From Escherichia phage phT4A, in sequence record NC_055712.1: a stretch of DNA of 64,000 nucleotides; one strand, written 5' to 3'. Of the stretch, positions 4,941 through 40,912 are shown one piece after another. The notes under the pieces were generated by a model that was given only the letters and a program-made list of their open reading frames with translations, had not been told where the DNA came from and did no database searches. Numbering within the stretch: the stretch's first letter is position 1; each line of letters begins with the position of its first letter. A program made the translations under genes and the position numbers.

Positions 4941-5040
4941 NNNNNNNNNNNNNNNNNNNNNNNNNNNNNNNNNNNNNNNNNNNNNNNNNNNNNNNNNNNN
5001 NNNNNNNNNNNNNNNNNNNNNNNNNNNNNNNNNNNNNNNN
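4941..5040. other. assembly gap (100 N)
   Basis: run of exactly 100 n. Confidence 0.99.
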
Positions 5041-32748: not shown

Positions 32749-33538
32749 ATGACTCACTTGAAAAAATTCAAAGAATTTCTGACCGAAGGTAAAACCCTCG
32801 CTCGTACCGTAGCACGTGGTCAACGCGCTAAAAACTTCCGATAAACATTCAATCGGTTTTCTTCACTTCAAACATGGTTCTGATTTCGAAGTTTTAGCAC
32901 CGGATTCTCACGATCTGGCATACTTCGGTAAAAACATTGTACGTTTGAAAGGTATGACTACTGGTAAAGTTCAAGCGGCTTATGTCGATTGGGCTAAAGG
33001 TACTGTTTCTTTCTACAGTGGCAATCCGGATGATGATCTGGATTTCGACAAACCAGAAAAATTCAAAGCTGCTACTCTGTATGAAGAGGCGGAAGAAAAT
33101 CTGGATCTGTATAACCAGTTAGCAGAAGATTTCGAAATCGAGATCCCTATGGATGAAGCTCTGGTGAAAGGTAAAGTTTACAAACTCCCAAGCAACGATA
33201 TGCGTCTTCTGTACACTGGGCGTTCTAAAACTAAAGCAAGCGGTGAATATGCAGTGTTTACCGTAGTTGATGCTTCCGGCAAACCTCGCCTAGTATCTGG
33301 TAAAAAATTCACCCAAGAATATAAAGGCGATATGGTTTCTAAACTGGTTCTGGCTGAATCCGAAGATCTGAATGAAGCGGCTAAAGGCATTCGCGAAAAA
33401 GTTATTGCTGTGATGGTGAAACGCGGGTTTAACGAAAAAGATGCAGAAAAGATGGTTGACAAAAACCTGAAAGATGCTATGAAAGTTAGACCTGGTGCGA
33501 CCCCTGGCAAACTTGCAGAAATAGTTAGCACCCTGTAA
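32749..33538 (+). CDS. internal-head-protein-like protein with capsid-targeting-like N-terminus; frame broken by one extra A in A5 run 32830-32834
   Basis: ATG at 32749 with AGGAAAAACAAAATG RBS; N-terminus MTHLKKFKEFLTE resembles T4 IP targeting sequence MKTYQEFIAE; frame open to 33538 after a +1 shift; strongly biased codon usage. Confidence 0.5.
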
Positions 33539-33544
33539 AAATAA

Positions 33545-33572
33545 AGCCCCTTCCTTTCGGTTGGGGCTTTTT
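33545..33572 (+). terminator. rho-independent terminator (bidirectional position)
   Basis: AGCCCC-TTCCTTTCGGTT-GGGGCT followed by TTTTT. Confidence 0.65.
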
Positions 33573-33574
33573 GA

Positions 33575-34429
33575 TTAGTATTTGCTCCAGACTTTTTTTG
33601 CGCCGTAAGGTTTCCCTTTGGACATAAATTGCTGAGTCGGTAGCCAAACAGCTTTCGCCCAATCTTTAGGGGCAATCTCTGCTAATGGTGATTTGAGGTG
33701 TGATGGTAGATATGCTTTGATCATTTCTGTTGCGCCTCGCATACCTTTCACGTTACCCCAGTTAATTTTAAGCACGGTCTTGTTAGAGAGGCGTTTAGTG
33801 GATCCGTACCCTCGCTTCAATAACTCTTCTAAAAACTCCTGTCGTGCTCTGGGTGGCGCATAGTGCAAGTTCAAACCATAGAACACTAAGTTACCCGCTT
33901 TCGATCTTCCGGATCCTAAGAAAATGATCAGTGGAAATCTATCCCAATACGGCAGGGTGTCTTTATATTTTGCATCATATGCAAACGTGTACAGGCGACC
34001 CGTTGCTGGTTTTGCCACACGGTGTGTTTTGATACTGGTTTTGATGAAATTACCAAACCATTCTGTTGAATCTTTCTGTCGCTTTGCCGCCGATACACCA
34101 ACAGTGATCTTTTTCAGACTATTACGGAAATCGTTGATGATCTCGATCCCGTGTTTTTTACGGTAGTCATTACGTTTTTTACGGGCTTCTGTCTCTGCGG
34201 AACGTCGTTCAATCTCATCATCAATCTGTTTTTTGTAACGATGCATTGACTTTGTGAACGTTGCGTAGTTTAATCCCTCAGAATCGGCAAAACGTTTAGC
34301 AGAAACACCTTTCGTTTTTGCCTTACGGAATTTGATCCCCAGTTCAACCCAATCACTCAATTTGCGTTTGGGTGGTGCTTTGGGTTTATCCTCTTCCGCG
34401 ATGATCTCAAACTCAAAAATAAAACTCAT
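33575..34429 (-). CDS. 2: DNA end protector protein gp2
   Basis: 284-aa basic protein between gp3 and gp4 as in T4. Confidence 0.6.
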   Translation of the reverse strand: MSFIFEFEIIAEEDKPKAPPKRKLSDWVELGIKFRKAKTKGVSAKRFADSEGLNYATFTKSMHRYKKQIDDEIERRSAETEARKKRNDYRKKHGIEIINDFRNSLKKITVGVSAAKRQKDSTEWFGNFIKTSIKTHRVAKPATGRLYTFAYDAKYKDTLPYWDRFPLIIFLGSGRSKAGNLVFYGLNLHYAPPRARQEFLEELLKRGYGSTKRLSNKTVLKINWGNVKGMRGATEMIKAYLPSHLKSPLAEIAPKDWAKAVWLPTQQFMSKGKPYGAKKVWSKY

Positions 34430-35517: not shown

Positions 35518-37283
35518 AATTAGGCGGAAATTTACACTCCCCTTTCTTTGATGGGGTGGTTGAAAACGTTGATGATCCGCGCGGGTTGGGCCGTGTTCAA
35601 GTCCGTGTATTTGGACAACACCCAGCCCAAAAACAAAAATCCGATGCAATCGGTGTTCCTGTTGAAGATTTACCCTGGATGATGCCTATTCAGGATATTA
35701 GAAGCGCTGCGATCTCTGGTGTGGGCTTCTCTCCAACTGGTATCACTCGCGGATCCTTTGTTGTTGGTTATTGGCGTGACAAATGGCACCAAGATGGTAT
35801 GATAATTGGTACTGTCGCTGGTGAATATGTCGAACAACCAGACACACAGAAAGGTTTTTGCGATCCTATGGGTGAATACCCTCGCTATGTTGGTAACGAT
35901 GTTAACTCCCTTGCTTTAGGTGGTTTGAAAGGCAAAGGATCATCAAGTGTCATCATTCGTGATTCAAACACAAGCATAGCAGTAAACCCAGACGATCGCC
36001 CACTGGATGAGATACCAGAAGATAACCGCCCTGATACGGGTGGATTTACGATCGAAAAGATGCTCAAGCAGGATGAGGGGATCCGTACACGATGGTATAC
36101 AGACAGTGAAGGATATCCGACAATCGGGATCGGGCATTTGCTTATCCGCGAAAAGACTCGCGACACTGCAAAAATTAACGCTGCGATCAGTAAAGCGGTA
36201 GGTCGAGAAGTAACAAACGGAACAATCACGGCAGAAGAGGTATCAACCTTATTTGCTCAAGATTTAGCCAAAGTAAGATCTGATATTCAGAGAACCGCTA
36301 ACGTCCGTGAAGTGTATGTGAACCTCAACCGTCCTCGTCAAATGGCGATCGAAAACATGTCGTTTCAAATGGGCGTCGGTGGTGTTGCTAAATTCACCAA
36401 TACCCTGAAAGCGATGAAAAATGAAGATTGGCAAGCGGCTTATAATGGTCTTCGAAATTCACTGTGGGCTAGTCAAACTCCAGGCCGTTCTTCTCGCGTG
36501 TCTAAAATAGTCCTCACGGGCAACCTTGAATCATATGGGGTACAAGTACCAGATCCGGAAGGGCGCTCTCTGAGTGCTGCTTACGCTGCGTATAACGGTG
36601 CTACATTGCTGGCGGCTAGTCCGGAAGATCCTTTTACTCCTGGTGATACCCGTGTGATGTTTGAAGAACCAGCATCATCTTATAATGCTGAATATCCGTA
36701 CAATATGGTTTTTGAATCGAGATCCGGACACATTCAGGAATTCGATGATACCCCAGGATACGAACGATATAACCGTGTTCACCCAGCAGGGAGTTACGAA
36801 GAAATTCGCCCGGATGGAACCCGCGTTGTTAAAATCGTAGGGGATGATTATCAAATTGTGATGCAGGGCCGGAAACTCAACGTTAAAGGCAACTTGCAGG
36901 TAGTTATTGAAGGCGACGCATTCATTTACAACATGGGTAACGTTCAACAAACGGTTGATGGTAACGTAACTGAGTTTGTTCGTGGCAACGTTCAACAAAC
37001 GGTTGAAGGTGAGTACGTTGGCCTGATTAAAGGCAATGCTGAACTAACTGTAAACAAAGATGCAACAGTTAACGTTGATCAGAATCTTACCGCAAATGTG
37101 AAACAGAATGCAACCGTGGCTGTAACAGAAGACGCAACGGTCACTGCAAAAAATGCGAAAATTGAGATTGAAGAAACGATGGATATCGGTGCTAAAGATA
37201 TCAATATCAAAGCAACGAATAACACGTTTATTGATTCTGGCGCATTAACAAAAATCACTGGCGGCACCGTCCAAGTGGGGTAA
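35514..37283 (+). CDS. 5: baseplate hub + tail lysozyme gp5
   Basis: OB-fold N-terminus, central T4-lysozyme-like domain (YTDSEGYPTIGIGHLL), C-terminal beta-helix repeats (GNVQQTV...). Confidence 0.92.
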   Translation: MKLGGNLHSPFFDGVVENVDDPRGLGRVQVRVFGQHPAQKQKSDAIGVPVEDLPWMMPIQDIRSAAISGVGFSPTGITRGSFVVGYWRDKWHQDGMIIGTVAGEYVEQPDTQKGFCDPMGEYPRYVGNDVNSLALGGLKGKGSSSVIIRDSNTSIAVNPDDRPLDEIPEDNRPDTGGFTIEKMLKQDEGIRTRWYTDSEGYPTIGIGHLLIREKTRDTAKINAAISKAVGREVTNGTITAEEVSTLFAQDLAKVRSDIQRTANVREVYVNLNRPRQMAIENMSFQMGVGGVAKFTNTLKAMKNEDWQAAYNGLRNSLWASQTPGRSSRVSKIVLTGNLESYGVQVPDPEGRSLSAAYAAYNGATLLAASPEDPFTPGDTRVMFEEPASSYNAEYPYNMVFESRSGHIQEFDDTPGYERYNRVHPAGSYEEIRPDGTRVVKIVGDDYQIVMQGRKLNVKGNLQVVIEGDAFIYNMGNVQQTVDGNVTEFVRGNVQQTVEGEYVGLIKGNAELTVNKDATVNVDQNLTANVKQNATVAVTEDATVTAKNAKIEIEETMDIGAKDINIKATNNTFIDSGALTKITGGTVQVG

Positions 37284-37287
37284 TTAA

Positions 37288-37337
37288 ATGATTATGGATT
37301 ATGAATCAATAATTGATGGAATTATGCAAAATTATCA
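37288..37337 (+). CDS. start of ORF running into assembly gap (may be 5' end of the following large ORF)
   Basis: ATG 37288 with GGGG RBS; MIMDYESIIDGIMQNY then N-run 37338-37437. Confidence 0.3.
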
Positions 37338-37437
37338 NNNNNNNNNNNNNNNNNNNNNNNNNNNNNNNNNNNNNNNNNNNNNNNNNNNNNNNNNNNNNNN
37401 NNNNNNNNNNNNNNNNNNNNNNNNNNNNNNNNNNNNN
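37338..37437. other. assembly gap (100 N)
   Basis: run of exactly 100 n. Confidence 0.99.
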
Positions 37438-38910
37438 TGCAAATATACGGGTATGCAGGTTAACACCAACGCAGATACAAGCATTCCTCCTGTTCCTCCT
37501 GCAATGCCTTCCACTTATGGGGCATTACCGAGTGAATTAATCCGTGCTGATATTTCGTGCATTCCGGCAACTGTTGGTTTCGCATATACAAATATCAGTG
37601 ATGCTATGTTACAGGCATGGAACGAAACCCGTAATACGTTCAAGCTACAGTTTAACATGTTAACGGGTGCTGTACAGAATGGATTCGGGATCGCGACGAT
37701 GTTTGATGGTTTATCCGTATCGATGGAAGAAGTAATGGCGGGGGCGCTCGCATTGTCACAGCAAGCATGGCAAACTGCTATGAAAGTTTTCAGACAAGTG
37801 ATTAGCGCTGCATTTAACATTATCGGTGGTGCATGGGGATTGATTAATCAGTTCTTGCCTCAAGTAACCATCTTAGGTGTTGCGATCAACATTTACGATC
37901 TGGTGTTTGGTGATAATTCTGTTCAGACTTTGAAAGATGCGTTTAATGCAATCATCAAATCCGGACAACAAACATATGAAACCGTCATAAACGCAATATA
38001 CGGGGCCATAGGAAGCGCATACAATTACTCTGTGGAATATGTCAAAGCTGGCGCTCGCGACCTTGTGGATGCGTGTAGCGCGTTATTTGATTGGTGTTTA
38101 ACGATGTTCCAAAACGGTTGCGTTGCATTAATCGACTTATACGGTCGGATCATGCAAACATGGGCTATCCCTCCGGAAGTCCCAAACCCGTTATGGTCTG
38201 CGGTGCTGGCTATCCGTAACATCATGATGCAAATCAAACCACTTGATATAATTCTGGGCGGTAACTTCCCTGGATTCACTGCAATGGATTTGTATCAACA
38301 AGCACAGGAAAAAGTCAAGGCTTTTGTTGATGAGTCATACGAACAGATCCGAGGGCTTTATGAACAGGGGCAGGAACTTTACAAAACGTTAAAAAATCAG
38401 ATTTTCGAACGTGATACAATTCAGAGAAAATTCAACCAGTACTTAAACTGGATGTGGGGCGCTGTAACAGACGAAGCAACAGCGGCTTATCAATCTGCAT
38501 TGGATGCTGCAAACGCTGCTGTAGCTGCAACACAGGCCGCGTATGACGCTATACAGGAACAGATTGGATCTCTACAAGATGCAATGAAAGATACATACAG
38601 CATGGCGATGGAAGAATTAAAGAAATTGCCTTTGATGAGTACAATAAACGAGTTTTTAGGCTTCTGTGGTGTCGCATTTGACGATCTTCTCAAGTCATAT
38701 GAAAATGCGATTACTGGTGCTCAGTCTCTGTACAAAAATTTCATTGATAGTTCTCGCTCGTTTAAAGATCACTGCAAAGTAATCTATAACCAAATTTGTA
38801 CGTTGGCGTTGAGTAAAGTCACACAATATGTGAATAAATTGCTGTCTCTCATAGGATTAGCAATCAACTTTGGTTCGATTAGTGTATGTGTTCCAGTACT
38901 GAAATACTAA
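37438..38910 (+). CDS. large hypothetical Ala/Gln-rich protein between gp5 and gp6 (5' partial)
   Basis: about 490 aa of open frame after gap; no T4 structural homolog recognised. Confidence 0.5.
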   Translation, partial: CKYTGMQVNTNADTSIPPVPPAMPSTYGALPSELIRADISCIPATVGFAYTNISDAMLQAWNETRNTFKLQFNMLTGAVQNGFGIATMFDGLSVSMEEVMAGALALSQQAWQTAMKVFRQVISAAFNIIGGAWGLINQFLPQVTILGVAINIYDLVFGDNSVQTLKDAFNAIIKSGQQTYETVINAIYGAIGSAYNYSVEYVKAGARDLVDACSALFDWCLTMFQNGCVALIDLYGRIMQTWAIPPEVPNPLWSAVLAIRNIMMQIKPLDIILGGNFPGFTAMDLYQQAQEKVKAFVDESYEQIRGLYEQGQELYKTLKNQIFERDTIQRKFNQYLNWMWGAVTDEATAAYQSALDAANAAVAATQAAYDAIQEQIGSLQDAMKDTYSMAMEELKKLPLMSTINEFLGFCGVAFDDLLKSYENAITGAQSLYKNFIDSSRSFKDHCKVIYNQICTLALSKVTQYVNKLLSLIGLAINFGSISVCVPVLKY

Positions 38911-38941
38911 ATAGTCGAATGATCAAGAGGAATTTATAATA

Positions 38942-40867
38942 ATGGCTACTGCTAAGACTAAGACTGTCAAAAAACAGATTAACCAAATCCCCGATATTTT
39001 TATCGGGGGTACTTTCGAAGAAATTAAAACAGATCTGATTGATTGGCTGGGTGGACAAGAAGAGTTTAAGGATTACGATTTTTCCGGCTCGCGAATGAAC
39101 GTACTGATCGACCTTCTGTCGTATGCTACTCTTTATATTCAGCAGATGGGTAACACGGCTCTATTTGAATCGTTTATTCGCACGGCTGCATTGCGTAGTT
39201 CTGTTGTACAGTCTGCTCAAGATCTGGGATATATGCCAGATTCTCGCACGGCTGCAAGCACAGCAGTAATGATTACGGCTGCTAACCCACTGACCCCAAC
39301 ATCGATCCGTATCCCGCGCGGTACAAAATTCATCGGTACTGTAAAGAATACAGACAGTTATTCTTTTGTTGTATCAGATGACGTTGTTATCGTTCGTGAT
39401 AGTAATAACAACTATACATCAATGCTGAACCTGGTGCAAGGCCGTTTAGTTCGTACTGAACTAATTTATGACGGTTCGAGTATCCTGATCCGAGATCCAA
39501 ACATTGACCGTAGTCAGGTACGTTTAACTGTAAACGGCGCACAATGGGAAGACTGGACAAACGAAAGCATTGTAAACGCAACAGGCGCAAGCACGATTTA
39601 CTACATGCGTGAAACTGTTGATGGACATACCGAAGTTTATTTCGGTGAAGGTGAAGCAAGTCAACAAGTGGCGGGTGGTGCATTAACCGCTGAATATATC
39701 GGGGGCTTGAAACCTGCTAATGGATCGACTATCGTTATTGAATACCTGTCAACCGATGGGGAAGCGGCTAACGGTGCAAAAGATTTTATCTATGTCGATA
39801 CATTAACCAATATTAGCATCACTAACATCGAAGAAAACCCGACTAAATCCCCTGATTATGTCGGTGCTGATGGTGGTGGTGATCCAGAAGATATCGAGCG
39901 TATTCGAGAACTGGCCCCTGTTATGCGTGAAACACAACGCCGTTGTGTAACTGCATCGGATTATGAATCTTTCCTGTCTCACAGATTTGGTTCTATCATC
40001 CAGGCGGTACAGTGCTTTACTGATAACGAAAAACCCGGTTATGCTTTCATTTCTGTTAAACCAAAGTCAGGTTTGCGCCTAACATCGGTACAGAAAGAAG
40101 ATATGCAAACGTATCTTTCGAAATATAACCTCGCGACGATCACCCCGTCGATTATGGATCCTAACTATCTGTATATTGTGCAATCTGTAAAAGTAACGTA
40201 TGATATCAGTAAGTTGACGGAATCAGAGGAATGGTTACGCGGTCAGGTTATTTCGTCGATCGACTCTTACTATACTGACAACGTTGAAATTTTCAACAAA
40301 TCTTTCAGTGTATCTAAGATGTTGACTTATGTCGATCAGTCTGATACCTCTATTATCGGTTCGGAAGCAGATATTAAATTGCTCCGTGAAATTGACAACT
40401 ATTACAGCGCCCCTATGTCTGGGATCCATTTCTTGAACCAGGTGGAATCTAAATCAATCATTTCCAGTACATTCAAGTTCACCAACGGAGAAGACGAAAG
40501 TTATGATGTTCGTTATGCTTCTACGGAAATGGATCAGGATGGTAACGCAAAAATTGTAATAGGCCCGTTCAAGGATGGGGATATTTCGATTGCTGCTTAT
40601 ACAGGCGATGACTTTGAAAAATTAACAGATGCAGGAACCCGTAATAAATATTACGAAGTTGGATCGGTTTCTCATTACACCGATTTCATTATCTTTGACC
40701 TGGGCGTTCTGAACGTATCCGCCGATAGTTTCAGCGCTGCTTATATCGAGCTAACCGCAAAGCCTCTCGAAGAAACCATTTTTACTCGCGATGGATCGTT
40801 GATCGTGTTTGAAAATGACCTGCGTCCTCAATACACCACATTGACTATGAATCCTATCAGTCAATAA
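38942..40867 (+). CDS. 6: baseplate wedge protein gp6
   Basis: 641 aa, position and size match T4 gp6. Confidence 0.8.
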   Translation: MATAKTKTVKKQINQIPDIFIGGTFEEIKTDLIDWLGGQEEFKDYDFSGSRMNVLIDLLSYATLYIQQMGNTALFESFIRTAALRSSVVQSAQDLGYMPDSRTAASTAVMITAANPLTPTSIRIPRGTKFIGTVKNTDSYSFVVSDDVVIVRDSNNNYTSMLNLVQGRLVRTELIYDGSSILIRDPNIDRSQVRLTVNGAQWEDWTNESIVNATGASTIYYMRETVDGHTEVYFGEGEASQQVAGGALTAEYIGGLKPANGSTIVIEYLSTDGEAANGAKDFIYVDTLTNISITNIEENPTKSPDYVGADGGGDPEDIERIRELAPVMRETQRRCVTASDYESFLSHRFGSIIQAVQCFTDNEKPGYAFISVKPKSGLRLTSVQKEDMQTYLSKYNLATITPSIMDPNYLYIVQSVKVTYDISKLTESEEWLRGQVISSIDSYYTDNVEIFNKSFSVSKMLTYVDQSDTSIIGSEADIKLLREIDNYYSAPMSGIHFLNQVESKSIISSTFKFTNGEDESYDVRYASTEMDQDGNAKIVIGPFKDGDISIAAYTGDDFEKLTDAGTRNKYYEVGSVSHYTDFIIFDLGVLNVSADSFSAAYIELTAKPLEETIFTRDGSLIVFENDLRPQYTTLTMNPISQ

Positions 40868-40872
40868 TCGTT

Positions 40873-40904
40873 AACCCCTGTCTTCGGATAGGGGTTTTTC
40901 TTTT
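40873..40904 (+). terminator. rho-independent terminator
   Basis: AACCCCT-GTCTTCGGAT-AGGGGTT then T-run. Confidence 0.65.
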
Positions 40905-40912
40905 TATAAATA
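40905..40912 (+). promoter_or_regulatory. late promoter TATAAATA
   Basis: exact TATAAATA 36 nt upstream of gp7 ATG. Confidence 0.6.

Follow-up and report, generated by a model that had tools for sequence, protein, structure and literature searches.

Spike tips determine how contractile injection machines cross the outer membrane. In phage T4 and in the T6SS, the tip is a single asymmetric protein of the PAAR type (gp5.4 in T4) that caps the threefold end of the gp5/VgrG beta-helix; in the absence of gp5.4, infection by T4 depends on the LPS core (PMC12407873). Gene 5.4 is absent from phages RB43, RB16 and Lw1, in which the locus contains orf205w, encoding a protein of ~690 aa that a 2025 preprint proposed to be a unique spike-tip protein replacing gp5.4 (PMC12407873; doi 10.1101/2025.08.28.672839). 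Cryo-EM of the RB43 baseplate, at 17.7 A and with C6 symmetry imposed, revealed an enlarged spike tip, and the density of this tip is fitted by an AlphaFold model of orf205w that the authors grade as low confidence (PMC12407873). The member of this family from the Slopekvirus Helios, gp203, was modelled with AlphaFold3 on the gp5 trimer in a 2026 paper (PMC13611949). In that model, the segments F287-I327, E398-W440 and K631-I670 form an intramolecular triple coiled coil, and the protein makes a hydrophobic contact with the last strand of gp5; according to its authors, the function of gp203 is not experimentally established (PMC13611949). Phage P1, in which the UpfB tripod stands on the PAAR protein UpfC, likewise has an alpha-helical extension past the end of a contractile-tail spike (PMC13611949).

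Here, we examine the locus between genes 5 and 6 in a 64,000-nt stretch of the genome of Escherichia phage phT4A (NC_055712.1; hereafter, the window). The ORF found there belongs to a protein family that is already known, that of the RB43 orf205w-type candidate for a large non-PAAR spike tip. The ORF is the Slopekvirus ortholog of orf205w and encodes a 76-kDa protein that, in our assessment, is likely to be a non-PAAR spike tip, present in a single copy at the blunt C-terminus of the gp5 trimer's beta-helix. In these phages, this protein most likely takes the place of the ~100-aa PAAR tip, gp5.4, and probably also that of gp5.1. Comparative evidence, especially a cassette swap between T4 and phage PD112 and the tip-specific C-terminus of gp5, strengthens the spike-tip assignment at the level of sequence.

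One gene interrupted by an assembly gap

The first-pass annotation placed at this locus, between gp5 and gp6, a single long frame at 37438-38910 that follows a 100-N gap, with a possible start at 37288. All these elements are present in the window sequence, and both neighbours have strong Pfam matches:

[quoted passage not shown]
37245..37283, + strand: last gp5 beta-strand, LTKITGGTVQVG, and stop codon; carrier-specific C-terminal motif, proposed docking platform
37288..37337, + strand: start of the candidate tip gene, codons 1-16 (MIMDYESIIDGIMQNY) plus 2 nt; identical to the start of the 688-aa CDS of phage Miro
37338..37437, no strand: assembly gap, 100 N standing for 544 bp; hides codons 17-198 and with them the greater part of the conserved N-terminal alpha/beta domain
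37438..38910, + strand: remainder of the candidate tip gene, codons 199-688 and stop codon (phrog_5296, E 1.8e-271, profile positions 199-685)
38942..40867, + strand: gp6, baseplate wedge subunit, the downstream neighbour (five Gp6 Pfam domains)

The run of Ns is exactly 100 bases long. The ATG at 37288, 4 nt past the gp5 stop codon, opens a frame that breaks at the Ns after 16 codons and resumes at 37438 with 490 codons. In the ORF list of the window, this ATG is in frame with the downstream piece by chance: the two pieces are fused only because 100 N happen to preserve the reading frame. The next gene after gp6 is gp7; downstream of gp6, there is a terminator-like hairpin (40873..40896) followed by TATAAATA at 40905..40912.

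A megablast search with positions 36800..39100 matched 156 phage records, 110 of them at least 95% identical, and all these close matches are Slopekviruses of Klebsiella, Raoultella or Enterobacter (Miro, KP15, PMBT1, phiEap-3 and others). The window locus is more than 99% identical to the Klebsiella Slopekviruses of the Miro/KP15 type. In the set used to size the gap, which comprised more than 100 complete Slopekvirus genomes with both flanks 99.2-99.7% identical to those in the window, the flank-to-flank interval is 2745 bp in each of the relatives among the records listed, compared to 2301 bp in the window, so that the 100 N stand for 544 bp. In Miro, the interval is a single CDS of 688 aa (YP_009607393.1, labelled 'hypothetical protein'). 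The first 16 residues are the same in the window and in Miro, and the frame that follows the gap corresponds to aa 199-688, with 488 of the 490 residues identical. Given this near-identity to the relatives, the gap apparently hides codons 17-198 of one 688-aa gene. The size of ~540 aa originally assigned to the protein is therefore an artefact of the assembly, complete relatives carrying one continuous gene. The related concern that small genes could have been lost in the gap is contradicted by every complete relative: no such genes are hidden, because the missing stretch encodes residues 17-198 of the same protein. The oddity of the locus is thus explained by an assembly gap combined with a previously described gene family.

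A narrow family of large proteins in T4-like phages

The full-length protein, as represented by Miro, consists of 688 aa and is acidic (76.1 kDa, pI 4.8). It belongs to phrog_5296, a family listed with 'unknown function', and aligns along its entire length with the complete profile (positions 1-685 of 685; E = 0, 1273.6 bits), whereas scans of the full-length protein and of its N-terminal 199 aa against Pfam and NCBIfam yielded nothing significant. A match to a well-known T4 protein in profile searches, which would have refuted the first-pass annotation, was not obtained; the protein has nevertheless already been described in RB43-type phages. The accompanying description as Ala/Gln-rich and of low complexity was overstated, with 11.4% Ala and 6.7% Gln in the visible part, and holds only for a segment at about aa 545-575, within a long predicted helix, where the bias is clear.

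A word-indexed search of 5.8 billion proteins retrieved 62 clusters (580-764 aa, 32-99% identity). The named clusters all come from T4-like phages of Enterobacterales, namely Slopekvirus, Enterobacter and Citrobacter phages, Yersinia JC221, Pantoea Phynn, Pectobacterium POP12, Proteus PM2 and Escherichia PD112. An exhaustive profile search, covering 1.84 billion representatives, recovered 8 cluster representatives of full length, along with 5 fragments and 9 partial matches that were weak; it contributed one full-length cluster beyond the word-indexed search and disclosed no deeper family link among these representatives. Four of the nine weak partial matches have a family-specific Pfam match, and all four are tape-measure-type proteins. 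Judging from these searches, the family is narrow. In the phage collection, tblastn detected the family in 215 records, in 213 of these at no less than 80% coverage.

The protein is orthologous to RB43 orf205w, with which it shares 78.6% identity at 100% coverage in tblastn; orf205w is of similar size (~690 aa) and is encoded in the same slot, directly downstream of RB43 gp5. The two proteins share a domain plan, with ~220 aa of mixed alpha/beta structure followed by an all-helical part. The window ORF is likewise a 99% identical ortholog of the protein treated in the Helios paper. There is no substantive difference from either orf205w or Helios gp203, other than that 182 residues are hidden in the gap of the window, and the function of the family as a whole is putative.

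Linkage to gp5 and to its C-terminal end

We traced the immediate neighbourhood of the gene in ten lineages: the window, Miro, RB43, Morganella phage Mm5, Cronobacter phage S13, Dhakavirus WG01, Bragavirus Pm5461, Tequatrovirus PD112 and two metagenomic contigs with 32-36% identity. In all ten, the spacer between the gp5 stop codon and the start of the orf205w-like gene is between -1 and +6 nt. The downstream side is less constant. In S13, gp6 is not the downstream gene, and in the metagenomic contig L015 a gp25-like gene intervenes; because the orf205w-like gene stays with gp5 in both cases, its conserved partner is gp5 rather than gp6.

The gp5 protein of the window is 50% identical to T4 gp5 across T4 residues 10-538, and the similarity is lost beyond this point. 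In 10 of the 10 carriers of the orf205w-like gene that were examined, gp5 ends in (G/A)-T/N-V-x-V-(G/R), mostly GGTVQVG or GGNVQVG. The usual tail is ...K(I/V)(T/S)GG(T/N)VQVG, with variants in Pm5461 (TGANVQVG), Mm5 (TGGTVVVR) and L015 (TGGTVSVG), and the C-terminus in the window, LTKITGGTVQVG, is like those of the carriers examined. In the gp5.4 carriers T4, Moon, Marfa and Aeromonas phage 31.2, gp5 ends in GSRI(D/N)(I/L/V)G, and in the gp5.4 carrier Acinetobacter phage Berthold it ends in ...NWNAPRYNMV. Thus, in these alignments, the C-terminus of gp5 co-varies with the type of tip gene.

Replacement of gp5.4 and a cassette swap in PD112

Homologs of T4 gp5.1, gp5.3 and gp5.4 were not detected by tblastn in the complete Slopekvirus genome PP889462 or in the window, where the best E-values are 0.35-0.97, 2.1-3.2 and 0.94-2.6, respectively. 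The gp5.4 query is sensitive: it found 1422 phage records, down to 26% identity (Campylobacter and Salicola phages). The orf205w-like gene and gene 5.4 share one genomic slot, that between genes 5 and 6, where one substitutes for the other within a single cassette.

This replacement can be followed within a single genus because PD112 is classed, together with T4, in Tequatrovirus. The DNA of the two phages is 95.8% identical up to about codon 503 of gp5; high identity returns, at 95.6%, in the final bases of gene 5.4 and continues downstream. The block exchanged in between spans 2295 bp in PD112, comprising the last ~88 codons of gp5 and a gene for a 678-aa protein of the orf205w family; its T4 counterpart spans 1605 bp and comprises the last 73 codons of gp5 together with 5.1, segC, 5.3 and 5.4. 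At the protein level, gp5 of PD112 and T4 are 95-100% identical in 30-column windows before the swap point, after which identity falls to 80% and then to 41%, 19% and 27%. The gp5 spike end and the putative tip gene thus travel together as one module, and the joint exchange of the gp5 tail and the adjoining gene is what would be expected from a physical interface between the two products.

Predicted structure

For the full-length protein, AlphaFold2 (AF2) predicts a compact monomer (mean pLDDT 87.5, pTM 0.78, with an alignment of 45 sequences), in which the N-terminal ~205 residues make up an alpha/beta domain, a Pro-rich linker comes next, and the body behind it is helical, with a core of three long helices. 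The elements that lie within the visible part of the gene are as follows:

37453..37557, + strand: Pro-rich linker, aa 204-238 (SIPPVPPAMP...); almost devoid of regular secondary structure according to AF2, isolated bridge residues only
37720..37824, + strand: core helix 1, aa 293-327; AF2 helix, matching Helios gp203 F287-I327 (PMC13611949)
37855..37893, + strand: hydrophobic beta-hairpin LPQVTILGVAINI, aa 338-350; AF2 strands 341-343 and 346-348, P339 and G345 invariant
38050..38163, + strand: core helix 2, aa 403-440; AF2 helix, corresponding to E398-W440 (PMC13611949)
38170..38196, + strand: PPEVPNPLW motif, aa 443-451, right behind core helix 2; P444, N448 and P449 invariant, P443 and P447 at least 90% conserved
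38281..38583, + strand: long variable helical hairpin, aa 480-580; AF2 helices 480-534 and 543-580
38749..38847, + strand: core helix 3, aa 636-668, with the most conserved segment, CKxIYNQIxTLALSKVTQWVNKLL; AF2 helix, mean conservation of aa 641-660 80%
38878..38904, + strand: C-terminal hydrophobic beta-strand ISVCVPVLK, aa 679-687; AF2 strand, Kyte-Doolittle peak 1.9, C682 and P684 at least 90% conserved

The three core helices agree between this model and that of Helios gp203. In the linker, P215 and P218 are invariant; in a model of the N-terminal part by itself, pLDDT declines from 71 to 43 over the course of the linker. A Foldseek comparison with the PDB gave nothing at E < 0.09, with TM-scores below 0.2; the N-terminal domain, as modelled, has no relative among solved folds. 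Comparison of the protein with itself by hhalign detected no significant internal threefold sequence repeat (probabilities 2-38%).

Conservation is distributed unevenly along the helical body. The block at aa 321-340, next to the beta-hairpin, has a mean conservation of 76%, and aa 481-600, at 38-55%, are among the least conserved parts of the protein; the long helical hairpin located there includes the Ala/Gln-biased stretch. Both hydrophobic stretches quoted in the first-pass annotation exist, and they coincide with two conserved beta elements, the hairpin at aa 338-350 and the C-terminal strand at aa 679-687. We infer that these two elements form a docking base on gp5, rather than membrane-spanning segments.

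Two other identities were considered and rejected. A PAAR-type protein, that is, a small (~100 aa) beta cone with a His/Cys metal site, is ruled out by the length of 688 aa and the predicted helical body. Pfam gives no PAAR match at E <= 1, blastp against T4 gp5.4 gives nothing at E <= 10, the only invariant cysteines are C20 and C199, and a conserved His triad is absent. The sole resemblance in a sequence search of the PDB is to the peptidoglycan-binding repeat CW_7 (Cpl-7), at aa 491-537. This match appears to be due to chance or composition: the per-repeat i-E values are 0.11-3.8, and the combined value of 1.5e-8 counts one segment three times. There is also no Pfam CW_7 match, and the segment belongs to a single long helix, rather than to a small three-helix unit such as a CW_7 repeat forms, and conservation is poor in this part of the protein.

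Proposed role and alternative explanations

The earlier suggestion of a spike-associated or ejected protein gains support from the coupling to gp5, the co-inheritance with the gp5 C-terminus, the lack of gp5.4 in these genomes and the published candidacy of the RB43 ortholog as a tip. As a spike tip, the protein would perform the same job as that proposed for gp5.4 and the PAAR tips, by quite different means. It has no sequence or Pfam relationship with these proteins and is seven times larger; its predicted structure is largely alpha-helical, in place of the small beta cone, and it lacks the His3Cys metal site; its partner gp5, too, has a C-terminal end other than that of the T4 system. The comparison with P1 also has its limits. 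There, three copies of a separate helical protein are placed on a PAAR protein, whereas in the window a single chain is predicted to supply the three core helices and no PAAR protein is present.

The mechanism that we envisage would proceed as follows. The protein would be translated straight after gp5 from the same late mRNA, given the observed spacing of the two genes; gp6 is probably part of this late transcript as well. The chain would fold into the predicted compact body, the core of which consists of three long helices of one polypeptide. This core could provide a pseudo-threefold base made up of the hairpin at aa 338-350, the PPEVPNPLW motif and the C-terminal strand at aa 679-687. Through a hydrophobic patch, that base would then close off the conserved end of gp5 (...KITGGTVQVG), an arrangement that others have modelled with AlphaFold3. 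Upon sheath contraction, by analogy with T4 and P2 biology, the tip would be the first part of the virion to pass through the outer membrane and would be released with the spike into the periplasm. The parts facing the host envelope would be the N-terminal domain, which is conserved, and the long helical hairpin, which is variable.

A further possibility, which we consider unlikely, is that the protein is a delivered effector, a single-chain, fusion-protein-like helical bundle with a conserved N-terminal domain of unmatched fold that is active after release into the periplasm. For example, the hairpin and the C-terminal strand may rearrange into the inner membrane, or the N-terminal domain may bind an envelope component and open a path for the DNA. 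If true, this would add a new, non-PAAR class to the spike cargo of phages. Also unlikely is an assembly factor specific for gp5: a scaffold or chaperone for the folding or trimerisation of the variant end of the gp5 beta-helix, missing from the mature virion. The tight linkage to gp5 and the co-inheritance with its C-terminus would fit such a factor equally well, the published attempts at co-expression of orf205w with a gp5 fragment were unsuccessful (PMC12407873), and we found no virion proteomics in the literature on carrier phages that either detects or excludes the protein, with KP15/KP27 and phiEap-3 reported without mass spectrometry. The virion data set for Morganella phage MP1 does not discriminate, because gp142-146 are all unlisted and this interval presumably includes gp5 itself. 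The extra density at the RB43 spike tip, which is big enough for the orf205w model (PMC12407873), argues against an assembly factor. So does the lack of any alternative tip candidate in these genomes, which follows from the absence of gp5.4, and a 76-kDa protein with surface-type motifs strongly conserved across 32-99% identity is large for a dedicated chaperone.

Some automatic annotations name the gene product 'tail length tape measure protein' or 'baseplate hub structural protein', which would make it the tape measure of the tail or a protein of the tube lumen; the former name is used in Pharokka-style records. We regard this identity as very improbable. Tape measure proteins (T4 gp29, PhageMin_Tail/TMP) share Ala/Gln-rich amphipathic helices with the protein analysed here, hence the weak profile matches: PHROG matches have E-values of 5.5e-11 to 8e-4 for the visible part and 6.9e-9 to 1.3e-4 for the full-length protein, and the exhaustive profile search recovered distant matches to proteins with PhageMin_Tail or TMP_3 domains. 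These matches, however, map to the helical hairpin, which is variable and rich in Ala and Gln, and do not involve the diagnostic tape-measure domains of the matched proteins. Pfam shows no tape-measure domain in the protein, blastp gives no similarity to the Slopekvirus gp29, and a compact rather than extended fold is predicted (pTM 0.78). Furthermore, a separate gp29 homolog is encoded elsewhere in the genome, in the hub cluster, so the protein is not the tape measure. Weak apolipoprotein-like matches map to the same hairpin (aa 480-580). An oriE-associated replication-origin protein, entertained in the first-pass annotation, or a mosaic of unrelated small genes split by the gap, is scarcely credible. 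What speaks for either is the position, near that of oriE and the small ORFs of T4. However, T4 has oriE and repEA/repEB within gene 5 itself and not in the interval that separates it from gene 6; in the window, the sole repEA-like signal is antisense within the conserved gp5. A mosaic is also at odds with the continuity of the ORF in 213 of the 215 phage records (at the coverage of 80% or more) and with the length of the family members, about 670-760 aa.

If the protein is indeed a spike tip, as we consider likely, the existence of a 76-kDa, helical, non-PAAR protein in this place would imply that the spike-tip position tolerates a wholly different solution, one that is passed from phage to phage in a single cassette with the gp5 end. 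The gene would then be a candidate determinant of host range or of the efficiency of plating. For therapeutic Klebsiella Slopekviruses, the practical value lies in its correct annotation. Existing labels for the gene include 'hypothetical', 'tape measure', 'baseplate hub' and even 'SbcC-like'.

Transcription and exchange of the tip gene

In phT4A, the putative spike tip gene lies between gp5 and gp6, and the boundary between gp6 and gp7 is marked by two signals.

40873..40896, strong terminator-like hairpin (10 bp stem and T-run), directly 3' of gp6
40905..40912, T4-type late promoter, exact match to TATAAATA, after the hairpin and ahead of gp7

This arrangement, with a hairpin after gp6 followed by a late promoter before gp7, points to a single late transcription unit that comprises gp53, gp5, the tip gene and gp6.

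Escherichia phage PD112, which is classified as a Tequatrovirus, carries a large cassette that includes the tip gene. Comparison of the PD112 locus (L014, 2234..4528) with that of T4 (L008, 3467..5071) shows that the counterpart of the cassette in T4 consists of the gp5 tail together with 5.1, segC, 5.3 and 5.4. On both sides of the cassette, the PD112 DNA is ~96% identical to that of T4, and the left breakpoint falls within the gp5 beta-helix.

The gp5-tip pair remains unbroken in two loci despite the rearranged order of the baseplate genes. In Cronobacter phage S13 (L011, 711..4558), small ORFs on the reverse strand, and not gp6, come next after the pair, and in a metagenomic contig (L015, 237..4970), a gp25-like gene separates the tip gene from gp6. 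Near gp2, Miro encodes an AP2-domain homing endonuclease (L001, 2298..2756) that is flanked by a hypothetical ORF and gp2. The corresponding interval in phT4A (33538..33575) is just 36 bp, so this mobile gene is absent from the phT4A isolate; the interval is likewise just 36 bp long in the complete Slopekvirus genome PP889462.

The RepEA-like signal

T4 RepEA yields a weak match (E 3.5e-4) at 36664..36786 on the minus strand, antisense within gp5. The simplest explanation of this match is the conserved gene 5 in reverse reading. An equivalent of the T4 oriE would map to the same site within gene 5, that is, outside the tip gene.

Annotation reliability

The early-gene region of phT4A contains another run of exactly 100 Ns, at 4941..5040; ORFs spanning this gap may be truncated or falsely joined, as at the tip gene. 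The tip gene itself carries mutually inconsistent labels in seven phage records matched by tblastn (H52, H37, H53, H56, H35, H36 and H46). Its public names, 'SbcC-like subunit of palindrome specific endonuclease', 'baseplate hub structural protein' and 'tail length tape measure', are probably wrong. Three genes of PP889462 that Pharokka annotates as 'tail protein' or 'minor tail protein' in fact encode the products listed below, and these functional labels also look unreliable.

L004 20614..20892, 92-aa LysM-domain protein
L005 27514..29727, 737-aa von Willebrand A-domain protein
L004 45883..47589 (outside the window), 569-aa protein whose N-terminus is weakly DnaJ-like
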